This document shows positions 31,911 through 59,497 of a stretch of 64,000 nt of DNA, piece after piece (position 1 is the first letter of the stretch; every line of letters starts with the position of its first letter). The position numbers and the translations under genes were made by a program. Source of the stretch: Solirubrobacterales bacterium (GTDB lineage: Bacteria; Actinomycetota; Thermoleophilia; Solirubrobacterales; 70-9); assembly GCA_036278095.1 (NCBI GenBank), contig DASULS010000008.1, positions 7,974 through 71,973 of the forward strand. Direction: 5' to 3'. The notes under the pieces are model-generated. The model searched no databases, was not told where the DNA came from, and saw only the letters and a list, made by a program, of their open reading frames with translations.

Positions 31911-32918
31911 TCAGCTGATTCGCGAGGCAATCGCGTCAGCGATGGCGGCCGCTTCTCGTTCCGCCTGCCGATGAGTGACCCGCAAGGTCGTGTAGCCAGC
32001 CCGCATCAGTTCCCGGTCGCGCCAGCGGTCGCGCTCGAAGGCGATGGGGGTGGCGTGGTAGTCGCGGCTGTCGGCCTCCAGGACGAAGCGGCGATCGGGC
32101 CAGAGGAAGTCGACCTCGATGCGGCCGTTGGCGATTTGGACCGGGGCGTTGAGGAGCGGGGTGGGGAGGCTGCGCTGGGTGAGCAGCGGCAGCACCTTCG
32201 CCTCCAGTGGGCTTTTGAGGCGGCCCTTCTTGGCCAGGGGCGCGGCGCGGCGCCATTCTTCGACCAGCGTCAGCAGGGAGCGGATGCCGCGCCGGCCCGG
32301 GTCGATCGACGCCTCGATCGCCGGGATGTCGAGCAGCCGCCGCTGCGCCGCCCGCTCGAAGGCGCTGCGCAGGGTCCAGTCGCCGACGACTCCCGCGAGG
32401 TCGACCAGCGTCCGCGCCGGGCTGGTGCAGGGGATGCCGTCGACGGTCCCGGTCTCCTCCAGGCGCGGCAGTCGCACGCGGTGGAAGCGGATGCCGTCGA
32501 TTCCCCGGCCGCGGTCGCCGGGGGCGATGACGTCGATTACGGCTGGCCCCTTGTCAAGGAGCCGCAGTAGAGCGCCGGCGCTGCGATGAGAGACGACCGC
32601 ACCTTCGCCACAGGCAAGAGTCGCGGCCCGCAACCGTCCCAGTTCCCTTACGTTCGGATGACCCAGGGAGTAAACGCCGCGGAAGATGCGATGCAGTCGC
32701 CCGTCCTCATTGGCGCGGTGGATGGCGCTCCTGCTCATTCCGAGGCCAAGTAGTTGGGAGCGCGAGACAACGCCATGCTGGCCGGCCGCCAAGGCCGCCA
32801 GTTCCCGTCCAAGATCAATGTGACTTTTGCTCGCTATGCGGATATAAGTCCCACCGCTGTGAAGTTCGCCCCCCCTTTGTCTGGGAAGATGGAGGGGCGT
32901 GACCCAAAACGGGAGCAA
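31911..32918 (-). CDS. AbiEi-like wHTH + DUF559 (Vsr-like endonuclease fold) protein, paralogue 1
   Basis: QHGVVSRSQLLGLG, GRLHRIFRGVY and EVDFLWPDRRFVLEADSRDYH blocks. The only canonical start is TTG 32918. An ATA (32837-32835) sits where the paralogues have ATG. Confidence 0.7.
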   Translation of the reverse strand: MLPFWVTPLHLPRQRGGELHSGGTYIRIASKSHIDLGRELAALAAGQHGVVSRSQLLGLGMSRSAIHRANEDGRLHRIFRGVYSLGHPNVRELGRLRAATLACGEGAVVSHRSAGALLRLLDKGPAVIDVIAPGDRGRGIDGIRFHRVRLPRLEETGTVDGIPCTSPARTLVDLAGVVGDWTLRSAFERAAQRRLLDIPAIEASIDPGRRGIRSLLTLVEEWRRAAPLAKKGRLKSPLEAKVLPLLTQRSLPTPLLNAPVQIANGRIEVDFLWPDRRFVLEADSRDYHATPIAFERDRWRDRELMRAGYTTLRVTHRQAEREAAAIADAIASRIS

Positions 32919-33321
32919 CGGAAACCTGGAGCGCGGCTCCTATCAGCCACCCACGCAGCGCCTCTTCGCGGTGCGCGGTGCTGTGCAGGCGGAGACGAAC
33001 ACGGCGGAGGCGATCCTGGCGGCGACCGGGGAGCTGATGCGGGAGCTGATCGGGCGCAACGGGCTGGAGCCGGAGGCGATGGTCAGCTGCCTGTTCACGA
33101 CGACCGACGACCTCGACGCCGAGTTCCCGGCGGTGGCCGCCCGGGACCTGGGGCTGACAGCGGTGCCGCTGATGTGCTGTCGGGAGATCCCCGTCCCCGG
33201 CTCGATGCCGCGGGTGATCCGGGTGATGCTGCACTTCTACGCGTCCGAGGCGCACGAGCCCGAGCACGTCTACGTCGGCGAGGCGCAGAAGCTGCGGACC
33301 GACCTGCACGCCGCCCAGTAG
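32899..33321 (+). CDS. aroH: AroH-type chorismate mutase
   Basis: LFAVRGAVQAETNTAEAI and CCREIPVPGSMPRVIRVMLH blocks. GTG 32899, with a 20-nt divergent overlap with the TTG-started DUF559 ORF. Confidence 0.8.
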   Translation: MTQNGSNGNLERGSYQPPTQRLFAVRGAVQAETNTAEAILAATGELMRELIGRNGLEPEAMVSCLFTTTDDLDAEFPAVAARDLGLTAVPLMCCREIPVPGSMPRVIRVMLHFYASEAHEPEHVYVGEAQKLRTDLHAAQ

Positions 33322-33354
33322 CGGCGCCGGGCATCCGTCCGTCACAATCGCGCC

Positions 33355-34449
33355 ATGACGATCACCTTCGCGGAGAAGCTCGCCCGCATGCCCGGCTACC
33401 AGGCCGGGGTGCCGACCGGCCAGGCGCCGGAGGCGATCGCCTCGGGCAACATCGCCCAGCTCGCCTCCAACGAGTCGCCGTTCCCGCCCCACTCGCAGGT
33501 GGTCGAGGCGATCGCCAAGGCGGCCGGGGCGATGCACCGCTACCCCGACCCCGACGCGACGCTGCTGCGCCGGCGCCTCGCCGAGCGCTACGAGACCGAG
33601 CCCGGCCGGGTCGCCGTCGGCAACGGCTCCTGCGAGCTGCTGCTCGCCGCCGCCGATGCGCTCTGCGAGCCCGGCGCCGAGATCGTCTACGCCTGGCCGG
33701 CCTTCTCGATGTACCCGTACCTGCCGGCGCTGACCGGCGCCCGCGAGGTCCGCGTGCCGCTGGCCGAGGGCGAAGTCCACGACCTCGACGCGATGGCGGC
33801 CGAGGTGACGGCGGCAACCCAGCTGCTGATCGTCTGCAACCCCAACAACCCGACCGCGACCCACATCCCCGCCGCCGAGATCGGCGCCTTCTGCGAGCGC
33901 ATTCCCTCGCACGTCACCGTCATCCTCGACGAGGCCTACGTCGAGTTCCAGACCCACGACGACCCCGACGCCACGCTCGACCTGCTCGACGACTTCCCCA
34001 ACCTGGTCGTCCTGCGCACCTTCAGCAAGTGCTACGGCCTCGCCGGCCTGCGGGTCGGCTACGGGATCGGCTCCGCCAACTTCCGCGCCGCCGTCGACGC
34101 CGTCCGCCAGCCCTTCAGCGTCAACGCCCTCGCCCAGGCGGCCGGGGCGGAGGCGATCCTGCACCAGGACGACGTCCTGCGCCGGGTCGAGAGCACGATC
34201 GCGGCCCGGCTCACCGTCGAGGAGGGGCTGCGCGCGCTCGGGCTGGAGACCACCGACACCCACGCCAACTTCTCCTGGATCGATCTCGGCGACGCCGACG
34301 AAGCCGAGGTCCTCGCCGGCCTCGCCGCGCAGGAGATCGCCGTCCGTCCCGGCAAGGCCCTCGGCGGTCCCGGCCGCATCCGCGTCAGCTACGGCACCGC
34401 CGAGGAGAACGAGCGCTTCCTGCGCGTATTGTCGGAATTACTTGACTAA
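33355..34449 (+). CDS. hisC: Histidinol-phosphate/aromatic aminotransferase (class II)
   Basis: LASNESPFPP, CNPNNPT and PLP-lysine context RTFSKCYGLAGLRVGY. Confidence 0.85.
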   Translation: MTITFAEKLARMPGYQAGVPTGQAPEAIASGNIAQLASNESPFPPHSQVVEAIAKAAGAMHRYPDPDATLLRRRLAERYETEPGRVAVGNGSCELLLAAADALCEPGAEIVYAWPAFSMYPYLPALTGAREVRVPLAEGEVHDLDAMAAEVTAATQLLIVCNPNNPTATHIPAAEIGAFCERIPSHVTVILDEAYVEFQTHDDPDATLDLLDDFPNLVVLRTFSKCYGLAGLRVGYGIGSANFRAAVDAVRQPFSVNALAQAAGAEAILHQDDVLRRVESTIAARLTVEEGLRALGLETTDTHANFSWIDLGDADEAEVLAGLAAQEIAVRPGKALGGPGRIRVSYGTAEENERFLRVLSELLD

Positions 34450-34466
34450 TCGCCGCGCCGTGGTAG

Positions 34467-34487
34467 AACCTCACACACAGTGAGGTT
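34467..34487 (+). terminator. Small hairpin after hisC (8-bp stem, 5-nt loop)
   Basis: AACCTCAC-ACACA-GTGAGGTT, with no clear U-tract. Confidence 0.35.
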
Positions 34488-34724
34488 GGACAAAGCCACA
34501 TCCGCGAACGGCCATAGAGCGCTCGGCGCCGCCGTCGTGCCTGGCTTCCTCACCTATTGGCGATTTAGCTAGGCGTCTGGCCCGGCGGCTGCGCGCCGCC
34601 GAAGACCGAGATCTTCCGGCCGGGCGCCATTTCGCATTCGTGTCGCGCTCGTGCGCCGCACCGAACCTGGCAACGAGCAACCAGAAAGTACGATTTCAGC
34701 GGTTTGGAGAAAGGCAAAGGCAAA

Positions 34725-35807
34725 ATGTTCATCGGGATGGAGGGGGCGAAACGAGACGGCGTCCGCGACCAGCGGATCGCCAAAGTGGTCGAGCTGGTGC
34801 CGCCGGCGCGGCTGCTGGACGAGCTGCCGCTCGGCGAGGCGCGGGCGAAAGCGGTGATCGAGGGCCGCGAAGAAGTCCGCGAAGTGCTGCAGGGCAAGGA
34901 CCAGCGGCTGATGGTCGTGGTCGGCCCCTGCAGCGTGCACGACCCAAAAGCGGCGATGGAGTACGCGACCAGGCTGGGCGCGCTGGCAAACGAGCTGCGC
35001 GAGGACCTGCTGGTGGTGATGCGGGTCTACTTCGAGAAGCCGCGGACGACGACCGGCTGGAAGGGCCTGATCAACGACCCGCACCTGGACGAAAGCGGTG
35101 ACGTCAACGCCGGCCTGCGGATCGCCCGCAAGCTGCTGACCGAAGTGCTCGACGCCGGCCTGCCGATCGGCTGCGAGTTCCTCGACCCGATCACGCCGCA
35201 GTACATCGCCGACTGCGTCGCCTGGGGGGCGATCGGGGCGCGCACCTCGGAGAGCCAGACGCACCGCCAGCTCGCCTCCGGCCTCTCGATGCCGATCGGG
35301 TTCAAGAACCGGACCGACGGCAACATCCAGATCGCGGTCGACGCGGTGCGGGCGGCGGCGGCCTCGCACGCCTTCGCCGGCATCGACGACGCCGGCATGC
35401 CGGCGATCCTGCACACGACCGGCAACCCCGACTGCCACATCATTCTCCGCGGCGGCCACGGGGTCCCCAACTACCACCCGCCCGAGGTCGAGGACGCGCT
35501 GGTCACGCTCGGCGTCGCCGGGCTGCCGGAGCGGCTGGTGATCGACGCCTCCCACGACAACAGCGGCAAGGACCCCGAAAAGCAGTTCTTCGCCGCCGGC
35601 GACATCGCCGACCAGATCGCCGACGGCAGCAAGGCGATCGTCGGGGTGATGCTGGAGTCGTTCCTGGTCGAGGGGCGCCAGAACCTGGCGCCGGGCGAGC
35701 CGCTCGTCTACGGCCAGTCGATCACCGACGCCTGCATCAGCTGGGAGGACACCGTCACCGCGCTGGAACGCTTCGCCGCCGCGGTGGAGGCGCGACGCGG
35801 GATATAG
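34725..35807 (+). CDS. aroG: Class I (AroF/G/H-type) DAHP synthase
   Basis: VVVGPCSVHDP and RVYFEKPRTTTGWKGLINDP motifs. The start is uncertain (TTG 34704, ATG 34725 or ATG 34737). Confidence 0.9.
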   Translation: MFIGMEGAKRDGVRDQRIAKVVELVPPARLLDELPLGEARAKAVIEGREEVREVLQGKDQRLMVVVGPCSVHDPKAAMEYATRLGALANELREDLLVVMRVYFEKPRTTTGWKGLINDPHLDESGDVNAGLRIARKLLTEVLDAGLPIGCEFLDPITPQYIADCVAWGAIGARTSESQTHRQLASGLSMPIGFKNRTDGNIQIAVDAVRAAAASHAFAGIDDAGMPAILHTTGNPDCHIILRGGHGVPNYHPPEVEDALVTLGVAGLPERLVIDASHDNSGKDPEKQFFAAGDIADQIADGSKAIVGVMLESFLVEGRQNLAPGEPLVYGQSITDACISWEDTVTALERFAAAVEARRGI

Positions 35808-35838
35808 CGGCGTACGCCGCCCGTATGCTGGCGGCGTC

Positions 35839-36936
35839 ATGACGAAGCCGCCTCGGATCACCGTCCTCGGGGTGGGCCTGATCGGGGGATCGATCGGGCT
35901 CGCCGCGCGGCGGCGCCTCGACGCCGAGGTGGTCGGCTACGGCCGCACCGCGGCGAACCTGGAGCGGGCGGTCGCGCTGGGGGCGCTCGACCGCGCCGCC
36001 GGCTCGCTCGCCGAGGCCTGCGAGGGCGCCGAGGTCGTCTTCTGCGCCGGCCCGGTGGCGGCGCTGCCGCAGCAGGCGCGCGAGGCGCTCGCGGCCTGCG
36101 GGCCCGAGGCGGTCGTCACCGACGTCGGCTCGACCAAGGGCGAGCTGGTGGCGGCGGTCGGCGACGACGAGCGCTTCATCGGCGGCCACCCGCTGGCGGG
36201 GGCGGAGACTGCCGGGGTCGAGAACGCCCGCGAGGACCTCTTCGAGGGCGCCCGCTGGTACCTGACCCCGACCGAGCGCTCCAGCGGCCTCCTCTACGAC
36301 CGCCTGCAGCGGCTGCTCTCTGCCCTGGGCGCGCGCCCCCAGGCGATCGACCCGGCCGGCCACGACCGCCTGATGGCGACGGTCAGCCACCTTCCCCACG
36401 TGCTCGCCAACGCGCTCGCCGCGGAGGCGGCGGAGTCGCTTACCCAGGGCTCCGAGCGGCTGCCCGACGTCGGCCCGAGCTTCCGCGACGCGACCCGCGT
36501 CGCCGGCTCCAACCCGGCGATCTGGGCCGACATCTTCGCCAGCAACCGCGAGGCGGTCGCCGCCTCGGTCGACTCGGTCGGGGCGCGGCTGCGCGAGGCG
36601 GCGGAGCTGATCCGCGCCGGTGACCTAGAGGCGCTCGCCGCCTGGCACGGGGCCGCCGGCGAGGCGCGCCGCCGCCTGCTCGAAGCCGAGTCGGAGGCGG
36701 GGCCGCTGCGCGAGCTGCGGATCGTCGTCGCCAACCAGCCGGGGACGATCGCCGAGCTGGCGCTGGCGCTGGGCGAGGCCGGCGTCAACATCGAGGACAT
36801 GGCGCTGCACCCGGCGCCCGACATGACCTCCGGCGCCGTCAGCCTCTGGGTCGCCGGCGACGAGGGCGCCGCCAGGGCGGCCGAGCTGGTGCGCGGTCTC
36901 GGCCACACCGTCACGCTGCTGGGCAGCGACGAATAG
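35839..36936 (+). CDS. tyrA: Prephenate dehydrogenase with C-terminal ACT domain
   Basis: ITVLGVGLIGGSIG NAD fold, GGHPLAG, and C-terminal LRIVVANQPGTIAELALALG (ACT-like). Confidence 0.85.
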   Translation: MTKPPRITVLGVGLIGGSIGLAARRRLDAEVVGYGRTAANLERAVALGALDRAAGSLAEACEGAEVVFCAGPVAALPQQAREALAACGPEAVVTDVGSTKGELVAAVGDDERFIGGHPLAGAETAGVENAREDLFEGARWYLTPTERSSGLLYDRLQRLLSALGARPQAIDPAGHDRLMATVSHLPHVLANALAAEAAESLTQGSERLPDVGPSFRDATRVAGSNPAIWADIFASNREAVAASVDSVGARLREAAELIRAGDLEALAAWHGAAGEARRRLLEAESEAGPLRELRIVVANQPGTIAELALALGEAGVNIEDMALHPAPDMTSGAVSLWVAGDEGAARAAELVRGLGHTVTLLGSDE

Positions 36937-36947
36937 GCTCGCGGGGA

Positions 36948-38240
36948 ATGACCCGCTTCGACCCCTCGAGACCCCTGCGCGGCGCGCTGCGGCCGCCGTC
37001 GGACAAGTCGATCTCCCACCGCGCGGCGCTGATCGCGGCGATGGGCGAAGGGGGGACGATGATCGAGGGCTACCTCGACGCCGCCGACACCCGCTCGACG
37101 CTGGCCGCGGTCGAGGCGCTCGGCGCCCGGGTGGAAGCCGGCGTGGACGGCTCGGTCTCCTCGCAGCTGCGGGTCCACGGCGTCGGCCTGCGCGGTGCCG
37201 AATCGGCCGACGTCGACGTCGGCAACGCCGGCACCCTGCTGCGGCTGCTGCCCGGCTGGCTGGCGGGGCAGGAGGGGGAGGACTGGGTCCTCGACGGCGA
37301 CGAGTCGATCCGCCGCCGCCCCGTCGACCGCATCGCCGTACCGCTGCGGCAGATGGGGGCGCGGTTGCGCTGCCGGGAGGATCGCCTGCCGCCGCTGGAG
37401 ATCGAAGGCGAGCCGCTGCGCGGGATCGCCTACGAGCTGCCGATCGCGAGCGCCCAGGTGAAGTCGTGCCTGCTCTTCGCCGGTTTGCTGGCCCACGGGG
37501 AGACGCGGGTGGTCGAGCCGCTGCCGAGCCGCGACCATACGGAGCGGATGCTCGCCGCCGCCGGCGCCTCGATCGCGCGCGAGGGCGACGCCGTCGTCGT
37601 CCAGCCCGCCGAGCGCCTGGAACCCGGCCCGATCACCGTCCCCGCCGACATCTCCTCGGCCGCCTTCTTCGTCGTCGCCACGCTTCTGGTCGGCGGCAGC
37701 GAGGTGGTGCTGGAGGAGGTCGGGGTCAACCCGACGCGGACGGGGTTGCTGGCGATCCTCGGGCGGATGGGCGCGGCGATCGAGGTCGAGGACGAGCGCG
37801 AGAGCAGCGGCGAGCCGGTCGCCTCGCTCCGCGTCCGCTCGGCGCCGCTGCGCGCCACCGAGGTCGGCGGCGCCGAGATCCCGCTGGCGATCGACGAGCT
37901 GCCGCTCGTCGCCCTCGCCGCCTGCTTCGCCGAGGGGACGACCGTGATCCGCGACGCCGAGGAGCTGAGGCGCAAGGAGTCCGACCGGATCGAGACCGTG
38001 ACCGCGGCGCTGTGCGCGCTCGGCGGCGCCGTCGAGTCGACCGCGGACGGGATGGTGGTCGAGGGGACCGGGGGTCTGCGCGGGGGCACGGTCGAGTCCC
38101 ACGGCGACCACCGGATCGCGATGCTCGGCGCCGTCGCCGGCCTTGCCTCGCGCGAGGGGGTCGAGGTGGTCGGGATGGACGCCGCGGCGGTCAGCTATCC
38201 CGGCTTCGAGGCCGACCTCGGCTCGCTGCTTAGGGCGTGA
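36948..38240 (+). CDS. aroA: 3-phosphoshikimate 1-carboxyvinyltransferase (EPSP synthase)
   Basis: PSDKSISHRA, VGNAGTLLRLL and LRRKESDRI motifs. Confidence 0.95.
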   Translation: MTRFDPSRPLRGALRPPSDKSISHRAALIAAMGEGGTMIEGYLDAADTRSTLAAVEALGARVEAGVDGSVSSQLRVHGVGLRGAESADVDVGNAGTLLRLLPGWLAGQEGEDWVLDGDESIRRRPVDRIAVPLRQMGARLRCREDRLPPLEIEGEPLRGIAYELPIASAQVKSCLLFAGLLAHGETRVVEPLPSRDHTERMLAAAGASIAREGDAVVVQPAERLEPGPITVPADISSAAFFVVATLLVGGSEVVLEEVGVNPTRTGLLAILGRMGAAIEVEDERESSGEPVASLRVRSAPLRATEVGGAEIPLAIDELPLVALAACFAEGTTVIRDAEELRRKESDRIETVTAALCALGGAVESTADGMVVEGTGGLRGGTVESHGDHRIAMLGAVAGLASREGVEVVGMDAAAVSYPGFEADLGSLLRA

Positions 38241-38241
38241 G

Positions 38242-39057
38242 GTGCGCGGCGCCGACCTCGAGGTGGAGCGCCTGGGGGAGGGGCCGCCGGTCCTCTTCGT
38301 CCCCGGCAGCGTCGTCGGAGCGGAGCTGACCTGGCGCCGCCAGCGCGCGCTCGCCGGGCGCTGGACGCTGATCTTCCCCAACCGGCCCGGCTTCGGCGCC
38401 AGTCCGCCGCTGCCGCGCAACGACTTCGAGGCCGAAGCGCCGCTGTTCGCCGAGCTGCTCGGCGACGGCGCCCACCTCGTCGGCCACTCCTACGGCGCGG
38501 TGATCGCCCTCTACGCGGCGGCGCTGCGCCCCGAGGCGGTGCTCTCGCTGACCGTCTCGGAGCCGGGCACCCTGCAGCTGGCGGGGACGCCCGAGGCGGC
38601 GGAGATGATCGCCAACGGCGAGCGTCTCTACGCGGCGGCCGACTCGATCGCGCCGCTCGACTTCGTCCGCATGTTCCGCTTCGGCGCCAACTCCGCCCGT
38701 GAGACGCCGAGCGAGCTGCCCGAGCCGCTGCGCCGCGGGGCCGAGCTGGCGATGCGCGAGCGCCCGCCCTGGGAGGGCGAGGTCCCGCTCGAGCGCCTCG
38801 CCGCGGCGGGCATCCCGGCGCTGGTCGTCTCCGGCGGCCACTCGCCGGTCTTCGAGGCCGTCTGCGACCGCCTCGCCGAGGCGCTGGGAGCGGAGCGGGA
38901 GACGATCGAAGGCAAGGGCCATAGCGTCCCCGAGACCGGCGACCCCTACAACCAACTCCTGAAGCGGTTCCTAGCCTCGCACGATCACGGCGCCGCCAGC
39001 GGAGCATCGTTTCCACCTTTGTCCTCGTTATGGCGAGGAAAAGGGTGGAAACGATGA
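38242..39057 (+). CDS. Alpha/beta hydrolase (Ser nucleophile GHSYG)
   Basis: GTG 38242, just after the aroA stop. The GHSYG elbow is present. The last 17 codons are encoded by the 55-nt hairpin module. Confidence 0.7.
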
Positions 39058-39058
39058 G
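39004..39058 (+). repeat. 55-nt hairpin module, copy 1 (ATG in loop)
   Basis: 51 of 55 nt identical to 42373-42427. Stem 39005-39027 pairs with 39034-39056. Loop TTATGG carries the ATG at 39030. Confidence 0.85.
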
Positions 39059-39713
39059 CAAATACGCTGCCGCCATGGTGATCGCGATCGACGGCCCGGC
39101 CGGGGCCGGCAAGTCCTCGGTGGCGCGCGCCGTCGCCGCCGAGCTCGGCTTCACCTATCTCGACTCGGGGGCGATGTACCGCTGCGTCGCCCTGGTGGCG
39201 CTGGAGCGGGGGATCGACCTCGACGACGGCAAGGCGCTGGGCGAGCTGGCCGAGGGGCTGGAGATCGGCTTCGACGGCCGCCGCGTCTTCATCGGCGAGC
39301 GCGAGGTAGGCGACGAGATCCGCACCCCCGCGGTCAGCGCCGCCGCGTCGCGGGTCTCGGTCCACCAGCGCGTGCGCGCGGCGATGGTCGCCCGCCAGCG
39401 GCAGCTGATCGCCGCCGGTCGCTACGTCGCCGAGGGCCGCGACATCGGCACCGCGGTCAGCCCCGAGGCGCCGCTGAAGGTCTTCCTCACCGCCTCCGAC
39501 GAGGAGCGGGCGCGCCGCCGCGCGGCGGAGACGGGCGAGCCGGTGGCGGAGGTGCTCGCCGCCCAGCAGCGCCGCGACGCCAGCGACACCGAGCGCGAGC
39601 ACGGCGCCCTGCGCGCCGCCGACGACGCGGTCGAGCTGGACACGACCGGGCTCTCGCTCTTGGAGGTCGTCGCTCGGGTGGTTTCCCTGGCCCGCGAACG
39701 GGGGCCCGCGTGA
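39054..39713 (+). CDS. cmk: Cytidylate kinase
   Basis: [14 protein letters not shown]-loop. ATG 39054 overlaps the hydrolase stop (ATGA). An in-frame alternative ATG at 39030 lies in the hairpin loop. Confidence 0.9.
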
Positions 39714-42318: not shown

Positions 42319-42372
42319 TCCCGCAAAACGCGGCAGTAACTCAACCCCCTCCAAAGCGCAGGGGGAAGAGCT

Positions 42373-42427
42373 GCATCGTTTCCACCCTTGTCCTCGTTAT
42401 GGCGAGGAGAAAGGTGGAAACGAGGAG
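42373..42427 (+). repeat. 55-nt hairpin module, copy 2 (ATG in loop is the start of DUF559 paralogue 2)
   Basis: 51 of 55 nt identical to 39004-39058. Loop ATG at 42399. Confidence 0.85.
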
Positions 42428-43349
42428 TCGGTTGGCGTGGGAGCTGGCGGGAAGGCAGCATGGAGTGGTGGGGCGGGCGCAGCTGTTGGGGCTGGGATTT
42501 ACGAAGAGCGGGATCGAGCATCGGCTGAAGAAGGGACGGCTCCACCGGGTCTCCGACGGCGTCTACCTGGTGGGGTGGGCGCGGCTCACTCGCGAGCGCC
42601 GTTGGATGGCGGCGGTGCTTGCCTGCGGAGACGGGGCGATGCTCAGCCATCGCAGCGCCGCAGCGCTCTGGGGATTCGGCAAGGAGCGGAAGGGAGTGAT
42701 CGACGTCAGCGTTCGCCGTCATTGCAAGGTGCGGCGGGTGGGAATCCACGTGCGCGATCGTCCCGGTCTCCGGAACCGCGATGTCGGCACGCGCCTCGAC
42801 ATCCCCGTTACCCAGCCCGTCCGCACCTTCCTCGACATCGCGACGGAACTGCCCGACAACGAGGTCGAGCGGGCGGTCAACGCGGCGGACAAGTGCGACG
42901 TGATCGATCCGGACCGGCTACGCCGGGCGCTTGGGGATCATCCTGGTGAGCCTGGTATCCGCCGCCTCCGCCGCGTGCTCGACGAGCACACCTTCCGCCT
43001 CTCCGACGACGAACTGGAACTCCTCTTCCGGCCGATCGCTGCTGCCGCCGGCCTACCGACCCCGCTCACGAAACAGCGCGTCAACAAGTTCGAGGTCGAC
43101 TTCTTCTGGCCCGACCTCGCCCTCGTCGTCGAGACCGATGGCTGGCGCTACCACCGCACGCCCTCGGCCCAGACCCGCGACGCGCTCCGCTTCCAGCGCC
43201 ATACCGCCGCCGGACTGACGCCCCTGCGCTTCTCCCACTACCAGGTCAAGTACGAACCCCGCCACGTCCGCCAGATCCTCGAACAGACCGCGGCGAACTT
43301 ATTGAGCCGGCGGTTGAGCTTCGCCGAGCCCGTGTTCGCCGGCGGCTGA
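42399..43349 (+). CDS. AbiEi-like wHTH + DUF559 protein, paralogue 2
   Basis: QHGVVGRAQLLGLG, GRLHRVSDGVY, RWMAAVLACGDGAMLSHRSAAALWG and EVDFFWPDLALVVETDGWRYH blocks. Its 3' end overlaps the convergent PH-domain gene by 51 nt. Confidence 0.8.
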   Translation: MARRKVETRSRLAWELAGRQHGVVGRAQLLGLGFTKSGIEHRLKKGRLHRVSDGVYLVGWARLTRERRWMAAVLACGDGAMLSHRSAAALWGFGKERKGVIDVSVRRHCKVRRVGIHVRDRPGLRNRDVGTRLDIPVTQPVRTFLDIATELPDNEVERAVNAADKCDVIDPDRLRRALGDHPGEPGIRRLRRVLDEHTFRLSDDELELLFRPIAAAAGLPTPLTKQRVNKFEVDFFWPDLALVVETDGWRYHRTPSAQTRDALRFQRHTAAGLTPLRFSHYQVKYEPRHVRQILEQTAANLLSRRLSFAEPVFAGG

Positions 43350-43814
43350 GACGCCCGTCGCCCGGTCCACGGACTGGACGACGTCGCCCGGGTCGGCTAC
43401 CCCGGCGAAGACGAAGTTGTAGTCGTCGGTCGCGGCCGTGTCGAAGTCGACGTCGCCGATCTGCATCAGGCGCTGGTAGACGCTCTGGCGGTAGTTGACG
43501 TTCTGGACCCGCTCCAGGCGCGTCTCCTGGATCTCCCGCGAGATGATCCCGCGCTTGATGTTGAGGCGGTGGTTGGTGATCGTGTAGGTCGTCGCCACCC
43601 GTTTGACGAAGCCGACGAGGATCGTGATCGCGAGGACGACGAGGATCACCACGAAGGCGCTGCCGTTGCCGTCGACCAGCTTCGCGATCACGCCGAGGAT
43701 CACCGCGATCAGCAGCCCTTTGAGGTAGAAGCCGAGGATCGCGCGCCAGGAGGGGTGGCCCTGGAAGATCACCTGCTCTCCTGGCCTGAGGTTGAAGCTC
43801 ACGGGCGCCAGCAT
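43299..43814 (-). CDS. Membrane protein with bacterial PH (YdbS/YdbT-like) domain
   Basis: ATG 43814 is preceded by a GGGGGACGAGGG SD-like run. Two TM helices, then ATTYTITNHRLNIKRGIISRE. Confidence 0.7.
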   Translation of the reverse strand: MLAPVSFNLRPGEQVIFQGHPSWRAILGFYLKGLLIAVILGVIAKLVDGNGSAFVVILVVLAITILVGFVKRVATTYTITNHRLNIKRGIISREIQETRLERVQNVNYRQSVYQRLMQIGDVDFDTAATDDYNFVFAGVADPGDVVQSVDRATGVSAAGEHGLGEAQPPAQ

Positions 43815-43849
43815 AAGCCCTCGTCCCCCGGCACGCATAACCTCAGCCG

Positions 43850-46045: not shown

Positions 46046-46055
46046 CGCAGGGTGG

Positions 46056-46127
46056 GGAGGGGTCGGGTACCCCTCTCAACACGCGCTTCGCGCTGGGAGT
46101 GTTTTGAGAGAGGTACCCGACCCCTCC
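46056..46127. repeat. Palindromic element: 24-nt arms with 23 matches, 24-nt loop
   Basis: GGAGGGGTCGGGTACCCCTCTCAA pairs with TTGAGAGAGGTACCCGACCCCTCC. Its right half resembles the right half of the 5545-5619 element. Confidence 0.9.
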
Positions 46128-46129
46128 TA

Positions 46130-46309
46130 CCGGAGCCGCTTTGCGAGCGCGTCGGCCAGGGCAGCGGTGGCTGGGGGGTGGCTGGTGAGGTAGAGGTTGG
46201 ACTCGGAAGTCGCCCTCCGCTGGGCCTTGCATAGAAGCCCAAGGCGAGCGGCAAGCGTCGCGGCGTCGTTCCAGTGGCGATGGCGATTCTGGGTCGTGGC
46301 ACGGTTACT
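46130..46309 (-). pseudogene. Start-less 60-codon open frame, possible remnant of a DUF559-type gene tail (weak)
   Basis: Hand translation gives SNRATTQNRHRHWNDAATLAARLG...LYLTSHPPATAALADALAKRLR*. The tail resembles ...AAAIADAIASRIS* of paralogue 1. There is no ATG/GTG/TTG in frame, and the stop overlaps the palindrome arm. Confidence 0.2.
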
Positions 46310-46357
46310 TCACGCAGGAAGTATCAGAACGGAGGAGACACTTAGACTCAGCTTTCG

Positions 46358-52221: not shown

Positions 52222-52324
52222 GGAGGGGTGGGTGCCCCTCTGCCGGAGACCGTACGTCTTAGAAGGGACCATCGGTGTCATCGGCTTGACCCAAAGCCTC
52301 CGTCAGAGGGGCACCCACCCCTCC
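52222..52324. repeat. Pair of inverted mini-hairpins (21-bp perfect inverted repeat, 61-nt spacer)
   Basis: GGAGGGGTGGGTGCCCCTCTG 52222-52242 is the reverse complement of 52304-52324. Each arm is itself GAGGGG-N6-CCCCTC. Confidence 0.85.
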
Positions 52325-53716: not shown

Positions 53717-54702
53717 TCCCTCTTCTCGCTACCCGGCTCGTAGTGGGAGGGCTCGACCCCGAGCGCCAGCTCGACCCGCCGCACCCGCTCGAAGACGCGC
53801 TGGGTCATCACCCGCTGGCCGGCGAGCAGGTCGCCGATCACGCCGAGGGCGAAGAGCTGGACGGCGGCGATGAAGAGGACGGCGCCGAGGATCAGCGACT
53901 GGATGTGGCCGGTGCTGTCGCCGTTGAAGATCCAGTCGATCAGGAACGGCAGCCAGGCGGCGAAGGCGAGCGCGAGGACGACGAGGCTGGCGGTGACGAA
54001 GGCGCGCAGCGGCTCGTAGCGCGCGTAGATGCGGAGGATCGCCGGCCCGTTGCGGCGCACGTAGGCGCCGGTCGAGTCGAACAGGCGCGACTCGCGCGTC
54101 TTCGGGTTGGTCCCAACCTCGACCTCGTCGACGGCGACCAGCATCTTGCCGGCCTGGATCAGGCTCTCCAGCGTGTAGGTGAAGTTGTCGACGACCAGCA
54201 GCTGCAGCGCGGCCTCGCGGTTGTAGGCGCGGAAGCCGGAGGTGGCGTCGGTGATCTCGGTCCCGGAGACGCGGCGCACGACCCAGCTGCCGAGCCGCTG
54301 CAGCCGTTTTTTGCTGGCGGAGAAGTGGTCGATGTCGGAGACGCGCCGGTCGCCGACGACCATGTCGGCCTCGCCGGCGACGATCGGCGCCACCAGCTTC
54401 GCCACGTCAGCGCCCTGGTACTGGTTGTCGGCGTCGGTGTTGACGACGACGTCGGCACCGAGCTTCAGGCAGGCGTCGAGCCCGGCCTGGAAGCCCGCCG
54501 CCAGGCCCTTGTTGTTGGTCAGGCGGACGATGTGCTCGACCCCGCATTCCCGGGCAACCTCGACCGTGCGGTCGCTCGAGCCGTCGTCGACCACCAGCAG
54601 CTCGACCTCGTCGATGCCGGGGACCTGCCGCGGCAGGTCGGCGATGGTCTGAGGCAGCGTCTGCTCCTCGTTGAGGCAGGGGATCTGGATGATCAGCTTC
54701 AT
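53713..54702 (-). CDS. Family 2 glycosyltransferase, polyprenol-phosphate sugar transferase-like (two C-terminal TM helices)
   Basis: IPCLNEE, VVDDGSSD and NTDADNQ (DxD) motifs, with C-terminal helices as in GtrB/DPM1-like enzymes. Confidence 0.85.
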   Translation of the reverse strand: MKLIIQIPCLNEEQTLPQTIADLPRQVPGIDEVELLVVDDGSSDRTVEVARECGVEHIVRLTNNKGLAAGFQAGLDACLKLGADVVVNTDADNQYQGADVAKLVAPIVAGEADMVVGDRRVSDIDHFSASKKRLQRLGSWVVRRVSGTEITDATSGFRAYNREAALQLLVVDNFTYTLESLIQAGKMLVAVDEVEVGTNPKTRESRLFDSTGAYVRRNGPAILRIYARYEPLRAFVTASLVVLALAFAAWLPFLIDWIFNGDSTGHIQSLILGAVLFIAAVQLFALGVIGDLLAGQRVMTQRVFERVRRVELALGVEPSHYEPGSEKRE

Positions 54703-54769
54703 GGGTGGTCAAGCAGACTATTCGCGCTGGCGGCGCGAGGGGCGTAGACTGATTGACGAGTCAGTCAAC

Positions 54770-55915
54770 ATGGATTCTCAGCTTACTTCCACGGATTGTG
54801 AGCACCTACGGCGGGCGTTGGAGCTGGCGGAGTGCGGGCGTGGGCGAGTTAGCCCGAATCCCCTCGTGGGTTCAATCGTGGTCCGCGACGGCGCCGTGAT
54901 CGGTGAGGGGTTTCATGCTGAGCTCGGTGGGCTGCACGCCGAGCGAGCTGCGCTGGAGGATTGCAGGCGTCGCGGGGAGGACCCGGCCGGGGCGACGATG
55001 TACGTGACGCTGGAGCCCTGCGCGCACCAGGGGAGACAGCCGCCGTGCGTGGAGGCGATCCTCGAGGCTGGGATCGGTCGCGTCGTGATCGCCTCCGAGG
55101 ACCCGAGCGAGAAGGCGGCCGGCCGCGGCCCCGGCATCCTCCGCGACGGCGGCGTCGAAGTGTCGTTCGCCGCCGGCGCCGAGGCGACCGCCGCCCGTCG
55201 CCTCAACCAGCCCTTCCGCAAGCACGCCCGCACCGGCCTGCCGCTGGTCGTCCTGAAGATGGCGATGTCCCTCGACGGCCAGACCCAAACGGCCCCTGGC
55301 GATTCGCCTTGGATCTCCGGCCCCGAGAGCCGCGAGCTCGTCCACCAATGGCGCGCCGAATCCGACGCGATCGCCGTCGGCATCGGCACCGTCCTCGCCG
55401 ACGACCCCCTCCTCACCGCCCGCATCGAAGGCGCCCGCCAACCCACGCGCGTCGTATTCGACCGCCACGCCCGCCTCCCACTGGAGTCCCAGCTCCTCCA
55501 GACCCTCGACCAGTCCCCGGTCCTGGTCGTCACCGCGCCCAATGCTCCAAGCGACCGCGTAAGCGCTCTTCGAGATGCGGGCGCAGAGATCCTCGTGGCG
55601 ACTGGCATTGATGCGGCGCTCGCGGAGCTGGGCCGCCGCGAAGTCACCAGCCTCTTCCTCGAGGGCGGCCGAACCCTCGCATCGGCCTTCCTCGCAGCCG
55701 ACCAGATCGACGAATCCCGTACCTTCATCGCCCCGATGCTTCTAGGTCGTCAACCAAATCCGGCCCCCCGCGCGGGTGGCGACGATCGGGAGGACTCTCC
55801 CGGTAGGGAGAGCCCCCGATCGGAGACAGGACCCGCGCGCCTGACCGCCCTGGAGTCGTCAACCGAGCAGGTAGGGGAGGACACTTTGATCACGGCCCGG
55901 TTCAAGGAGTGGTGA
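54770..55915 (+). CDS. ribD: Bifunctional riboflavin deaminase/reductase RibD
   Basis: HAERAAL and TLEPCAHQGRQPPC zinc-deaminase motifs, with a C-terminal reductase domain. Confidence 0.9.
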   Translation: MDSQLTSTDCEHLRRALELAECGRGRVSPNPLVGSIVVRDGAVIGEGFHAELGGLHAERAALEDCRRRGEDPAGATMYVTLEPCAHQGRQPPCVEAILEAGIGRVVIASEDPSEKAAGRGPGILRDGGVEVSFAAGAEATAARRLNQPFRKHARTGLPLVVLKMAMSLDGQTQTAPGDSPWISGPESRELVHQWRAESDAIAVGIGTVLADDPLLTARIEGARQPTRVVFDRHARLPLESQLLQTLDQSPVLVVTAPNAPSDRVSALRDAGAEILVATGIDAALAELGRREVTSLFLEGGRTLASAFLAADQIDESRTFIAPMLLGRQPNPAPRAGGDDREDSPGRESPRSETGPARLTALESSTEQVGEDTLITARFKEW

Positions 55916-55916
55916 G

Positions 55917-56516
55917 GTGTTCACGGGCCTGATCGAAGACGTGGGAACTGTCGAGGCGATCGACCGCACCGGCGACGGTGCGCGCTTGCGCATCTCCACC
56001 CCGCTGACCCGCGACCTGGCGCTTGGCGACAGCATCGCCGTCAACGGCTGCTGCCTCACCGCGACCGCAGTGGATGCCGGCCAATTCGAGACCGAGGCGA
56101 TGAACCAGACCTTGACCGTCACCGCCCTCGACGGAGTTGAGCAAGGCAGCCGCGTGAACCTGGAGCTGGCGATGAAGGCCTCCGACCGCCTCGGCGGCCA
56201 CATCGTCCAAGGGCACGTCGACGGCGTCGGTACCGTGGTCTCCGCCGAGGACGACGGCTTCGCTCGCCGCCTCCGCGTCGAGCTCCCGCAAGAGATTCTC
56301 CGCTACGTGATCGACAAGGGCGCGATCACGCTCAGCGGCGTCAGCCTCACGGTCGCGAATTTGGGGGATTCTTGGGCTGAGGTTTCCCTCATCCCTGAGA
56401 CCCTGGAGCGGACCAACCTCGGCGAAGCCGGGCCGGGAAGCAAGCTGAATGTCGAGTGCGACATCGTGGCGAAGTACGTGGAGCGTTTGGTGGCACCATT
56501 CGCCGGAAAGGAGTAG
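55917..56516 (+). CDS. ribE: Riboflavin synthase alpha chain
   Basis: GTG start. [12 protein letters not shown] and duplicated lumazine-binding halves ([22 protein letters not shown]). Confidence 0.9.
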
Positions 56517-56518
56517 GC

Positions 56519-57841
56519 GTGAGCCAGATGGCCGAAGTCCAGAAACAAGAGCGCAGCACGAGCACGGGCGGGAGCCCGTTCGCCTCGATCGAGGAGGCGA
56601 TCGAGGAGATCCGCGCCGGCCGCATGGTCGTCGTCTGCGACGGCGAGGACCGCGAGAACGAGGGCGACCTGGTGATGGCGGCGCAGTTCGCGACGCCGGA
56701 GGCGGTCAACTTCATGGCCAAGGAGGCGCGCGGGCTGGTCTGCCTGGCGCTGACCGCGAGGCGCTGCGAACGCCTGGGGCTGAACCTGATGGCGGCGAAG
56801 AACGAGGCGCCGCTGGAAACCGCCTTCACGGTCTCGATCGAGGCCGCCGGCGGTGTCAGCACCGGCATCTCCGCCCACGACCGCGCCCACACGATCCAGG
56901 TCGCGATCGACCCCGACTCGGGCCCGCGCGACATCGTCGTCCCCGGCCACATGTTCCCGCTGCGCGCCAAAGACGGCGGCGTCCTGGAGCGCACCGGCCA
57001 CACCGAGGCCAGCGTCGACCTCGCCCGCCTCGCCGGCCTCACCCCGGCCGGCGTCATCTGCGAGGTGATGAACGACGACGGCACGATGGCCCGGGTCCCG
57101 GACCTGATCCCCTACTGCGAGAAGCACGGGCTGAAGATGATCACCGTCGCCGACCTGATCGCCTACCGCCGCCGCACCGAGAAGCTGGTCGAGCGCGTCG
57201 TCGCCACCGGCCTGCCGACCGCCTTCGGCGACTTCACCGCCGTCGGCTACCGCTCCCTGGTCGACGACAAACACCATGTGGCGATGGTCAAGGGCGAGGT
57301 CGACGGCGAGGAGGACATCCTCGTCCGCGTCCACTCCGAGTGCCTCACCGGCGACGTCTTCCACAGCATGCGCTGCGACTGCGGCGAGCAGCTGGAAGCG
57401 GCGCTCTCGATGATCGAGCGCGAGGGGCGCGGCGTCCTGCTCTACCTCTCTCAGGAGGGGCGCGGGATCGGCCTGCTGAACAAGCTGCGCGCCTACAAGC
57501 TGCAGGAGGAAGGCGCCGACACCGTCGAGGCCAACCTCAAGCTGGGCCTGCCCGCCGACCTGCGCGACTACGGCATCGGGGCGCAGATCCTCGGCGACCT
57601 CGGCCTGACCAGCATCCGCATTCTCACCAACAACCCGAAAAAGATCGTCGGCCTCGAGGGCTACGGCCTCTCGGTCACCGAGCAGGTGCCGATCGAGTCG
57701 GCCCCCAACACCCACAATGAGGCCTACCTGCGCGCCAAGCGCGACAAGATGGGGCACTCGCTGCACCATCAGGGCCTTGCCCTCGATGAGGAGATGATCC
57801 GCGACGAGGAGGAACGCGACGCCAAGGACGCCGATGGCTGA
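56519..57841 (+). CDS. ribBA: Bifunctional DHBP synthase / GTP cyclohydrolase II
   Basis: GTG 56519 lies 5 nt after GGAG (alternative ATG 56528). DRENEGDLV and [20 protein letters not shown] motifs. Confidence 0.95.
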
Positions 57842-58340
57842 GGCCGGGGCGTTCCTGGAGGAGTTCCGGGACGAAGAAAAAGGGGCGCTGAAGGATCTGA
57901 AGTTTGCGGTTGTGGTCGGGCGCTTTTATGAGGACCTGGCGCAGCGGCTGGTGAGAGGCGCTCAGCAGGGCTTTGAGATCGCTGGCGTCCCCGCCTTCAA
58001 CGTTCACGAGTACTCCGTCCCAGGTGCTTACGAGCTCCCGTTTGCCGCCAAGGCATTCATCGAAGGAGCGGAAAGCAGGGGAGAGGAGCCCGGAGGCGTC
58101 GCCTGCCTCGGCGTCGTCATCCGGGGCGAGACCGACCACTACGACTTCGTCTGCGCCGAGTCCGCGCGCGGCATCCAGCAGGTACAGCTGGAGACGGGAG
58201 TTCCTTGCGCCTTCGGCGTCATCACCTGCGACAACATGGACCAGGCGCTGGCCCGCTCCGGAGGCGACAAGCGCGACCAGGGCCGCAACGCCGCCCTCAC
58301 CGTCGCCCGCATGGCCCTGCTCAAGCGCCAGATCGGCTGA
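57834..58340 (+). CDS. ribH: 6,7-dimethyl-8-ribityllumazine synthase
   Basis: Overlaps the ribBA end by 8 nt. VPGAYELP and [12 protein letters not shown] motifs. Confidence 0.9.
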
Positions 58341-58363
58341 CTCAGCTACCATCCAGCGTCCTC

Positions 58364-58555
58364 ATGGCCAAGGTATGCCACAGCTGCGGCAAGGGACCGG
58401 CGTTCGGCCAGTCCCGCAGCCACTCGATGGTCGCGACCAAGCGCCGCTTCGAGCCGAACCTGCAAAAGGTCCGGATCCAAGAGAACGGCCGCCCCCTCCG
58501 CGCCTACGTCTGCACGCGCTGCCTCAAGGCCAACAAGGTCCAAAAGGCCGCGTAG
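58364..58555 (+). CDS. rpmB: 50S ribosomal protein L28
   Basis: MAKVCHSCGKGPAFGQSRSHS...RAYVCTRCLK, 63 aa. Confidence 0.9.
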   Translation: MAKVCHSCGKGPAFGQSRSHSMVATKRRFEPNLQKVRIQENGRPLRAYVCTRCLKANKVQKAA

Positions 58556-58615
58556 TCCTCGAAAAAGCGGCGGGGTAGGGGGGAGAGGCCGAGGGGCTGT
58601 CGACTTAGTGGACAT

Positions 58616-59497
58616 ATGGGCCACAAAAGCGACACGGTCGATTCGCGTGTGGCGAGAATCGCGGCGCAGCAGCATGGAGTCGTGACGTTGCGGCAGCTCG
58701 AAGAGGTGGGATTGACGCGCGAGGCGACTTACAAGCGAGCGCGGAGAGGACGTTTGCACCGCCTCCACCGCGGTGTCTACGCGGTGGGGCACCGTGCCCC
58801 CACGCACCACAGCCGCTGGATGGCCGCGGTGCTCGCTTGCGGTGAGGGAGCGGTGTTGAGCCACGGGTCCGCGGCGGCGCTTTGGGGACTCCTGCGGCCG
58901 ATCAACGGACCCATTCATGTCTCCGTGCCATCCACCACGGGCCGCAAGCGACGCTCCGGAATCCACCTCCACCGAGTGCCCTCCCTCTCGCCCTCCTCCT
59001 CAGCAATTAGAGGAGGGCGAGAGGGAGGGCGCGTGTGCACCCGCCGCCACAACATCCCCGTGACCACGATCCAACGCACGATCGACGACCTCGAGGGCTC
59101 CATTGCCCCGTACCTCCTGCGTCGCGCTCGCCGCCAAGCCGAGCTGATGGGCGTGCGCCTCGAGGGCGCCGAGGGGCGCCGCCTCCGCTCCGATCTCGAG
59201 GAAGGCTTCCTCGCGCTCTGCCACCGCCACCCCTTGCCACCGCCCGAGACGAACGTCAAGCTCGGCCGCTGGGAGGTCGACTTCCTCTGGCGCGAGCAGA
59301 AGCTCGTCGTCGAAATCGACTCGTTCCTCTACCACCGAGGGTCGATCTCATTCCACGAAGACCACGCTCGCGACCTCGACCTGCGTCGACGTGGCTACAC
59401 GGTGCTGCGCTTCACGGAAAAGCAGCTCGAAGAGGAACCCGAGCACCTCGCCGCCGACGTGGCGCGGGCCCTCGGCGAGAAAGCGCTAGCCGTCTGA
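58616..59497 (+). CDS. AbiEi-like wHTH + DUF559 protein, paralogue 3 (carries an internal palindrome)
   Basis: QHGVVTLRQLEEVG, GRLHRLHRGVY, RWMAAVLACGEGAVLSHGSAAALWG and EVDFLWREQKLVVEIDSFLYH blocks. Its 3' end overlaps the convergent MMPL gene by 12 nt. Confidence 0.8.
   Translation: MGHKSDTVDSRVARIAAQQHGVVTLRQLEEVGLTREATYKRARRGRLHRLHRGVYAVGHRAPTHHSRWMAAVLACGEGAVLSHGSAAALWGLLRPINGPIHVSVPSTTGRKRRSGIHLHRVPSLSPSSSAIRGGREGGRVCTRRHNIPVTTIQRTIDDLEGSIAPYLLRRARRQAELMGVRLEGAEGRRLRSDLEEGFLALCHRHPLPPPETNVKLGRWEVDFLWREQKLVVEIDSFLYHRGSISFHEDHARDLDLRRRGYTVLRFTEKQLEEEPEHLAADVARALGEKALAV
58978..59030. repeat. Palindromic element inside a coding sequence: 20-bp perfect inverted repeat, 13-nt loop
   Basis: GCCCTCCCTCTCGCCCTCCT 58978-58997 is the reverse complement of 59011-59030. 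It is translated in frame as PSLSPSSSAIRGGREGG. Confidence 0.9.

Follow-up and report, generated by a model that had tools for sequence, protein, structure and literature searches.

AbiEi binds two 23-bp inverted repeats that lie 3 bp apart in its own promoter, and Rv2827c binds 23-bp repeats that lie 13 bp apart and overlap the transcription start; in each case, the outcome is negative autoregulation (PMC7319586). The genes examined here encode proteins with the same type of DNA-binding module, fused to a predicted nuclease of the DUF559 family. Three such paralogues, termed #1, #2 and #3, are found in a stretch of 64,000 nucleotides (the window; G+C content ~70%) on contig DASULS010000008.1 of a Solirubrobacterales bacterium. 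Their start codons lie within a palindrome that shares the geometry of the proven AbiEi-family operators. This start-codon palindrome is most probably the site to which the encoded protein itself binds, and by analogy with AbiEi and Rv2827c it would be an autorepression operator. To our knowledge, no member of the AbiEi–DUF559 architecture has been characterised, and no function has been established for DUF559 itself; a search of the literature yielded no functional study of this architecture, and DUF559 is mentioned there in passing only.

The closest described proteins, AbiEi from S. agalactiae and Rv2827c from M. tuberculosis, have in common with the present family the presence of both AbiEi domains, together with inverted repeats of ~20 bp that are a few bp apart and overlap the start of the gene. 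The differences are equally clear. In AbiE, the partner is the AbiEii (DUF1814) gene, whereas the genes in the window have housekeeping neighbours; a gene for an AbiEii (DUF1814) nucleotidyltransferase is adjacent to none of the three copies, nor to the family genes in ~45 related loci. Furthermore, proteins of the present family carry a fused DUF559 nuclease at the C-terminus, the start codon marks the centre of the palindrome, and there are many paralogues per genome that fall into discrete operator/helix classes. The #1–#3 proteins thus contain AbiEi parts without belonging to a type IV AbiE pair.

The three genes were recognised as paralogues in an original prediction made from the window alone, and this has stood up to scrutiny. 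Gene #1 (31911–32837, minus strand) encodes 308 amino acids if it starts with ATA at 32837–32835; #2 (42399–43349, plus strand) encodes 316 amino acids, with a winged helix-turn-helix (wHTH) at residues ~1–62, the AbiEi C-domain at ~63–200 and DUF559 at ~203–300; and #3 (58616–59497, plus strand) encodes 293 amino acids and has ~30 orthologues at the same position between rpmB and the gene for an MMPL transporter. Pairwise protein identity is 38–42%, every sequence block quoted earlier is common to all three, and a census with hidden Markov models (HMMs) found no further family members in the window. One correction concerns the start of #1, which had been placed at a TTG at 32918. Translation from there would read through the palindrome and the G-rich box upstream of it, and the start is most likely the ATA at 32837, in the palindrome centre; orthologues of #1 at the same site have an ATG, GTG or ATA start at the equivalent position.

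The proposed combination of an AbiEi-type wHTH with a DUF559 domain is borne out by Pfam, by PADLOC, and by an AlphaFold (AF2) model that was compared with known structures using Foldseek. The Pfam model AbiEi_4 matches #1, #2 and #3 with E-values of 2.5e-11, 2.5e-4 and 2.2e-10, exceeding the gathering score in #1 and #3 and falling slightly under it in #2 (21.5 vs 25); a match to AbiEi_1 is sub-threshold only. PADLOC AbiEi models span residues ~10–180 of all three proteins (E 5e-33 to 3e-28) and cover profile positions ~26–196 of 216; as most of the profile is matched, both AbiEi domains are present. DUF559 (PF04480) is over the gathering score of 20.6 bits in all three (22.6, 24.5 and 39.1 bits), and the related model REase_MTES_1575 (PF18741), which overlaps the DUF559 match, stays under threshold (28.1, 19.7 and 26.9 bits vs 38.2). 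For #2, an alignment of 123 sequences gave an AF2 model (predicted local distance difference test score, pLDDT, 90.6) that has wHTH topology, and its best match in the Protein Data Bank is full-length S. agalactiae AbiEi (6y8q; E 2e-6, 202 columns, TMt 0.63). By profile search, the family comprises 8,686 clusters (50% identity) at E ≤ 1e-30 and 26,310 at E ≤ 1e-10.

The last ~100 residues of the #2 model superimpose on the catalytic domain of the EDxHD homing endonuclease I-Bth0305I (3r3p; template modelling (TM) score 0.79, root-mean-square deviation 2.8 Å), on the DUF559 structure 3hrl (TM 0.72) and on Vsr (1cw0, 1vsr). At the sequence level, the family profile matches 3hrl with an E-value of 5e-7, and the match to I-Bth0305I is marginal (E 0.12). 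The motif EVDF...VVExD...YH...D..R, which comprises E232, D234, E245, D247, Y251, H252, D261 and R264, is shared without change by the three paralogues and shows little or no variation in 123 homologues. With this degree of conservation, the nuclease site looks intact, and the structural check suggested at the outset gave a predicted nuclease fold with its catalytic residues in place. In profile, fold, and acidic and His residues, the domain resembles the DUF559/Vsr-like nucleases (PF04480, NGO0050 with structure 3HRL, and E. coli Vsr). Stand-alone DUF559 proteins have ~100–120 amino acids; here, in contrast, the domain forms the C-terminal third of a 300-residue DNA-binding protein. I-Bth0305I, the best structural match for the catalytic domain, likewise has its nuclease tethered to a separate DNA-binding region, but this region is unrelated to that of the present family, and I-Bth0305I is encoded by a phage group I intron, as opposed to the chromosomal intergenic setting found here.

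Relatives in source databases carry the name 'very-short-patch-repair endonuclease', and this speaks for the view that the three are ordinary, vertically inherited genes for transcription factors or Vsr-like repair enzymes, with hairpins that are mere terminators. These names are, however, automatic only. None of the three proteins matches the Vsr family (PF03852) or the NCBIfam Vsr model, nor indeed any other NCBIfam model, and no cytosine methyltransferase gene adjoins #1, #2 or #3; unlike Vsr, the family has no Dcm partner. This reading is taken up again below, together with the distribution of the genes.

Inverted repeats had been predicted at four places in and around these genes. All four exist, and they fold much better than shuffled sequences (z −7 to −9). 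They fall into three unrelated objects: the start-codon palindrome, a class of GC-rich hairpins, and a hairpin that resembles a miniature inverted-repeat transposable element (MITE). The 5′ flank that had been noted as shared by #1 and #3 is a genuine likeness, and is the same feature as the palindrome over the start codon of #2. This palindrome has imperfect arms of 14–23 nt and a spacer of 3–12 nt, with the start codon (ATG, GTG or ATA) within the spacer, and is present at #1, #2, #3 and ~45 relatives that include more distant family members. At #2, the putative operator (42376–42423, plus strand) has 21-nt arms and the loop TTATGG, with the ATG at 42399 (z −7.1); it is found in every #2 orthologue, with arm sequences that vary and complementarity that is kept. 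At #3, the putative operator (58598–58634, plus strand) reads TGTCGACTTAGTGG acatatggg CCACAAAAGCGACA (z −3.6). At #1, the palindrome (32818–32855, minus strand; GGTGGGACTTATATCCGC ATA GCGAGCAAAAGTCACAT) is degenerate in this genome (z −1.1), and well-paired versions occur in the #1 orthologues of five related loci (L003, L004, L006, L007 and L014; L-numbers denote related loci or genomes, and P-numbers denote homologous proteins).

The symmetry of the palindrome is maintained across the family. In 28 #3-type loci, 84.6% of palindrome cells are paired, compared with 67.9 ± 1.3% in shuffled controls (0/500) and 36–46% in slid-partner controls, and nine of 16 pairs display compensatory changes on both sides. 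Long, contiguous arms with compensatory changes would also be expected of an mRNA hairpin that exposes or hides the start codon and thus controls translation. The start codon always lies in the loop, the upstream G-rich box resembles a Shine–Dalgarno sequence, and the folding at #2 is strong (z −7.1), all of which agrees with such a mechanism. The nature of the mismatches does not: on the sense strand, there are nine G:T, 24 A:C and 41 other mismatches, and the lack of G:U enrichment argues against a hairpin in mRNA. A C/A mismatch at one arm position is conserved in 23 of the 28 loci, symmetry is kept in solo palindromes that have no gene, and an mRNA hairpin does not predict covariation with only the recognition helix, as described below. 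Translational control by such a hairpin is hence regarded as quite improbable.

A G-run ('tAGGGGGGnGAG'), referred to here as the G-box, precedes the palindrome by 8–12 nt in almost every member. In the window it is found at 32863–32877 (minus strand; AAAGGGGGGGCGAAC) for #1, at 42359–42370 (plus strand; CAGGGGGAAGAG) for #2 and at 58576–58587 (plus strand; TAGGGGGGAGAG) for #3. It is possibly a promoter or a ribosome-binding element; a scan for sigma-70 promoters around #3 returned nothing.

A separate observation concerns the start codon. ATA replaces ATG or GTG at the palindrome centre in #1 of the window and in L004, L006, L135, L136 and L143; these belong to several independent clades, and the open reading frames (ORFs) are intact. 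The ATA variants improve the central symmetry of the palindrome (e.g. CCTATAGG, GCTATAGC), and the gain in symmetry from a TATA centre may be the reason why ATA starts recur. This suggests either a conflict between palindrome symmetry and start codon, or the use of a very weak start.

The most informative property of the palindrome is its covariation with the protein. The inner 6–7 bases of the arms form discrete classes (CTCTCG, GTGGAC, GTTACC, GTTCGG, GTCTCC, CGTCC and others), and every operator class goes together with a distinct form of helices 2 and 3 of the wHTH. The classes are discordant with the phylogeny of the flanking genes. Among 19 related sequences in ~8 classes, the excess identity of pairs from the same class over pairs from different classes is confined to residues 2–4, which are encoded by the right arm of the palindrome itself, and to residues 25, 26, 29, 34–36, 38 and 40. 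When class labels were permuted, the excess for residues 25–40 was +0.348 (0/5000), and that for residues 9–24, 41–120 and 140–290 was ~0. Linkage of the whole block cannot yield this pattern, because the intervening residues 9–24 show no excess. Judged from these alignments, the covariation is what is expected when a protein and the DNA site that it reads switch specificity together.

The explanation that is considered to have somewhat better than an even chance is that each gene is an autoregulated, sequence-directed nuclease cassette of a toxin–antitoxin or defence-like type, whose operator and recognition helix co-diversify and which is lost or replaced at intergenic hot spots. Each cassette would produce a single polypeptide that combines a complete AbiEi-type module with a Vsr/DUF559-type PD-(D/E)xK nuclease. 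Two molecules would bind the two arms of the palindrome through their winged helices, as AbiEi and Rv2827c do at their 23-bp repeats, and binding would repress the gene itself; a potentially harmful nuclease would thereby be held at a low, self-limited level. Recognition helix and inner arm bases are envisaged to diversify jointly into discrete specificity classes, so that paralogues and alleles would be insulated from each other. The #2 protein probably binds a twin of its operator upstream of cmk as well. The cassettes are accessory and located in intergenic hot spots between core genes; they are repeatedly lost, and recombination in the conserved flanks would put old, divergent alleles in their place. 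The least certain step is that the nuclease may be the effector of a toxin–antitoxin-like, abortive-infection or selfish module that is derived from AbiE and has replaced the separate AbiEii toxin.

CapRel(SJ46) is a fused, single-polypeptide toxin–antitoxin defence protein. It would be comparable in concept, with a regulatory antitoxin-type module joined to an effector within a single chain and a gene that is solitary, variable and accessory; as its domains are unrelated to those of the AbiEi–DUF559 family, this is an analogy only. A role of the nuclease in a fused toxin–antitoxin or abortive-infection system is preferred, but unproven.

Several points weigh against this explanation. The covariation was tested on the 19 related sequences in ~8 classes mentioned above. 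In this genome, #1 has a degenerate palindrome, and ATA takes the place of ATG in #1 and in several relatives; some copies may therefore escape regulation, or may not even be expressed. An AbiEii partner is absent, the genes do not cluster with other defence genes, and a toxin or defence role is suggested by analogy. Solo palindromes without a gene, such as those between recG and rsmD, also have long complementary arms with perfectly compensated changes, and a hairpin or cruciform role, or templated correction of quasi-palindromes, fits these as well as protein binding does. The class of GC-rich hairpins lies outside what the model explains.

The family behaves in the manner of a hypervariable immunity or selfish locus set among the core genes of soil Solirubrobacterales. 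The autoregulated-cassette model is testable in its putative components: an operator for the gene itself at the start codon, a handful of specificity residues, another binding site ahead of cmk, and an intact nuclease under autorepression. Should the fused nuclease have taken the place of the AbiEii toxin, the biology of type IV toxin–antitoxin and Abi systems would extend to single-chain systems, and if the recognition code holds, the family would offer many natural specificity variants of one DNA-binding scaffold.

The distribution of the genes reveals their accessory character. Each had been noted to split neighbours that are conserved elsewhere, and this was corroborated: #1 separates rluB from aroH, #2 (together with a bPH_2 gene) separates metK from priA, and #3 (with the MMPL gene) separates rpmB from yloV–recG; in relatives that lack the paralogue, the flanks abut directly. 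A search for empty sites in close relatives found such vacancies, and also other family members in the same gap. Site #1 is occupied in L003, L004, L006, L007 and L014 and is cleanly empty, with rluB abutting aroH, in L005, L008, L009, L012, L015 and L016. Site #2 is occupied in L001–L003, L005, L007 and L013 and empty in L004, L006, L008, L010, L011, L014 and L030; in L004, G-box and palindrome are retained (as three overlapping palindromes) and the gene body is gone, and this relic therefore represents a loss. Site #3 is occupied in ~30 metagenomic relatives, and elsewhere is empty or contains MITE-like palindromes, unrelated ORFs, or a #1-like member that points the other way (L110, L132). 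In more distant genomes (L017, L020 and L024), members are found in other gaps of the same conserved gene cluster.

The alleles also differ in age from their surroundings. At the #3 locus, nucleotide identity falls straight after the rpmB stop codon and returns at the 3′ border of the gene. Loci L098 and L101, for example, differ by 1.3% in yloV and 0.8% in MMPL, yet by 23% in #3. Synonymous divergence (dS) is 0.7–1.3 in the N-terminal part of the gene and 0.3–0.75 in the nuclease part, compared with 0.10–0.28 in yloV, while the ratio of non-synonymous to synonymous rates (omega) is 0.17–0.44 in all parts of the gene, indicating purifying selection. By these divergence estimates, these are functional genes with alleles far older than the surrounding chromosome. 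This fits either allelic replacement via the conserved flanks or long-lived polymorphism, and is a pattern typical of immunity, defence or selfish loci. The G+C content at third codon positions (GC3) is 0.81–0.84 in #1–#3, compared with 0.90–0.96 in the neighbouring housekeeping genes.

In favour of ordinary vertical inheritance, orthologues occupy the same positions in the same orientations across many related genomes, and the omega values of ~0.2–0.4 are those of genes under purifying selection. This is countered by relatives of equal closeness that have empty sites, by the deletion relic, by a dS that is 4–8 times that of the flanks, by allele classes that conflict with the flank phylogeny, and by the deviating GC3. 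Vertical inheritance in this simple form is accordingly judged a poor prospect.

The original prediction had viewed the genes as selfish or defence-type modules, with homing in mind. The accessory nature at synteny breaks and the old alleles uphold the broader part of this view; the homing mechanism is without specific support. Free-standing homing-type endonucleases are exemplified by the seg and mob genes of T4-like phages; such an enzyme would cut the empty intergenic site, and repair would copy the gene in. In keeping with this, the genes stand alone between conserved genes, empty sites exist in close relatives, one and the same gap can hold different members (L110, L132), alleles predate their flanks, and I-Bth0305I is among the closest solved folds for the catalytic domain (TM 0.79; sequence E 0.12). 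However, the DNA-binding module matches, and covaries with, a site located 5′ in the very gene that encodes it, which is intact in occupied loci, and not with any empty-site sequence; empty sites hold varied DNA with no common candidate target. No co-conversion tracts are visible at the gene borders, since identity to relatives returns within 30–60 nt of them, and on this timescale, sites #1 and #2 fit one old gain in a sub-clade that was followed by losses. A tblastn search with #3 gave no match among catalogued plasmids and phages, these collections have yielded no member, and the genes are chromosomal, without intron or intein. Homing is therefore unlikely, though not to the same degree as the mobilisation of palindromes that is considered next.

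Palindromes of the start-codon type also occur without a gene. A twin of the #2 palindrome (39005–39056, plus strand; 92% identical) lies 3.3 kb upstream of #2, in front of the true start of cmk (~39076), where it overlaps the end of an ORF resembling alpha/beta-hydrolases. The similarity to the #2 operator ends with the ends of the palindrome, and there is no G-box. The palindrome upstream of cmk is kept at the orthologous position in L001–L003. In the window and in L001, it is 92% and 90% identical, respectively, to the #2 operator of the same genome, whereas the same palindrome positions compared across the two genomes are only 62–64% identical. By this comparison, the cmk site evolves in concert with the #2 operator in both genomes; either the #2 protein also binds there, or gene conversion takes place between the two copies. 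The pattern suggests that the palindrome is a second binding site of the #2 protein, with a target ahead of cmk–der.

A further solo palindrome is located at 21848–21888, at the gcvPA|gcvPB junction, with perfect 17-nt arms (CGTGGTTCCTTAGACAC ccatgac GTGTCTAAGGAACCACG; z −8.5). It has an ATG in its 7-nt loop in the style of the family operators; there is no family gene at this junction and no matching paralogue in the window. In relatives, others are found between recG and rsmD and between the DivIVA-like gene and YceD. In L140, the DivIVA-like|YceD gap, which is downstream of recG, harbours a family member that is flanked by two 97%-identical palindromes (15426–15462 and 16275–16311); where the gene is absent from this gap, one solo copy abuts the YceD stop codon (L108 15483–15519, L111 8446–8482 and L131 7412–7448). 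It was also considered whether all solos derive from simple recombination between flanking palindromes, and this was rejected, as the solos at empty sites lack a G-box.

These solos weakly sustain a reading of the palindrome as a cassette boundary or attachment site, in which the nuclease would process or mobilise its cognate palindromes, as RAYT proteins do for REPINs, or in which the palindromes would serve in insertion and excision. Repetitive extragenic palindromes (REP), REPINs and RAYTs are similar in that short palindromes are tied to a specific gene, with gene-less copies in intergenic gaps. They differ in that RAYT is an HUH tyrosine transposase, of which there is no counterpart here, and in that there is just one palindrome here, with the start codon at its centre, in place of copies that flank the gene; moreover, solo copies are few in the loci covered and conserved in position. 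Gene-less palindromes with ATG or ATA in the loop (21848–21888, 39005–39056, recG|rsmD and DivIVA-like|YceD), the doubly flanked gene of L140 with its single copies at empty loci, the three overlapping palindromes in place of a gene in L004, and the confinement of the GC-rich hairpins to family genes or their immediate side would all be accommodated by mobilisation. Nevertheless, a repeat of the member's own palindrome within ±10 kb was seen for only four of 43 members, and the solo copies are old and not dispersing, because they occupy orthologous positions (four genomes share the cmk site, and six share that at recG|rsmD). Lacking a G-box, those at empty sites are no simple scars of an L140-like arrangement, and Pfam, PADLOC and Foldseek detect no HUH, integrase or transposase domain. 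A mobilising or processing nuclease is thus very unlikely.

A more far-reaching variant, to which an outside chance is given, is that the proteins are modular, sequence-programmable nucleases. A few residues in helices 2 and 3 would set a code for ~7 bp of the inner arm, and the palindrome would be both operator and a site for cutting or nicking that triggers exchange or insertion of the cassette. If true, such a self-mobilising, allele-replacing cassette would account for the solo palindromes, the doubly flanked gene in L140, and the ancient alleles within near-identical flanks.

The second type of inverted repeat is the GC-rich hairpin. One example (31817–31895) lies 24 nt past the stop codon of #1, between this gene and the convergent rluB-like gene (z −9.1), a place expected for a terminator and in this respect in line with the notion of ordinary genes and their terminators. 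The other (58978–59030, plus strand) lies inside #3, has perfect 21-nt arms (z −8.9), and encodes the in-frame insert SPSSSAIRGGREGG, which is positioned in a surface loop of the AbiEi C-domain. Both belong to one class with a variable outer stem, a CCCTCC/GGAGGG inner stem, and a loop of 11–13 nt whose sequence is partly conserved and occurs in either orientation; outer stems covary among the #3 orthologues. The class has 29 occurrences in 1.72 Mb of related loci, all of them in #3-type genes or just 3′ of #1-type genes; beyond the pair in the window, 27 cases are in loci L004–L133. Most #3 orthologues have the internal hairpin, which is missing from L098/L099 and P0126. At the gathering threshold, Rfam contains no RNA family that matches the window, and the hairpins are therefore not known RNAs. 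Two other explanations for the GC-rich hairpin inside #3 were tried and rejected: a dispersed repeat, as its sequence was found in #3 orthologues only, and a sharp recombination boundary, as identity climbs little by little towards the 3′ end and does not jump at the hairpin.

The third type is represented by the hairpin at 46056–46127 (72 nt) in the priA|def gap. It belongs, as a short version, to a MITE-like family that has the ends GGAGGGGT...ACCCCTC and also includes palindromes of 200–250 nt in the rpmB|MMPL gap of L116, L117, L128, L135 and L146. A start-less fragment in the priA|def gap had been taken for a relative of the three paralogues; no similarity was detected by blastp, blastx or HMM searches, and a family relic was rejected, as the DNA corresponds to the two ends of an ATP-grasp (DcsG_N) gene of relatives. 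The 5′ and 3′ ends of this gene are found at 46046–46357, and the gene is intact in L001, L002 and L007; by this comparison, it has suffered an internal deletion in the window. The suggested link between the paralogues and palindromes is real in the form of a family-wide putative AbiEi-type operator and gene-specific GC-rich hairpins, and is given up for the priA|def hairpin, which is unrelated, and for the mechanism that had been proposed.

With regard to the wider surroundings, #1 (minus strand) is preceded in the window by scpB and the rluB-like gene and followed by aroH and hisC; #2 is located between metK on one side and bPH_2 (minus strand) and priA on the other; and #3 follows ribH and rpmB (58364–58555) and precedes MMPL (minus strand), yloV and recG. 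The final 51 nt of #2 (43299–43349) overlap the 3′ end of the convergent bPH_2 gene (43299–43838, minus strand). The tail encoded by this overlap (...LLSRRLSFAEPVFAGG) is also present in the closest homologue, P0001; the stop codon of #2 was recently lost or shifted, as the other orthologues stop earlier. Between aroA and cmk, an ORF resembling alpha/beta-hydrolases (38242–39057; ...HSYG...) was identified by eye only. This gap is ~60 nt wide in the closest relatives, L001–L003, and contains an insert of ~0.9 kb in L004, L011 and L030; aroA|cmk is another variable gap of the same gene cluster.

The MMPL transporter gene (59486–61738, minus strand), which separates #3 from yloV, is itself inserted when compared with the most distant relatives (L152, L154, L155 and L159), in which it is absent and rpmB abuts yloV. 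Its protein distance between close relatives is uneven, at 0.8% to 25% for yloV distances of 1–4%, which suggests recombination. In many relatives (L084, L138, L143, L152, L154 and L159), rpmB is followed by a conserved, structured element of ~110 nt (GGCCGTAGGAC ... GCACTGCCGC ... GTCCTACGACCTCAGGGG), which could be a structure in the 3′ untranslated region or a small RNA; at some loci, its 3′ end provides the G-run ahead of #3-type genes.

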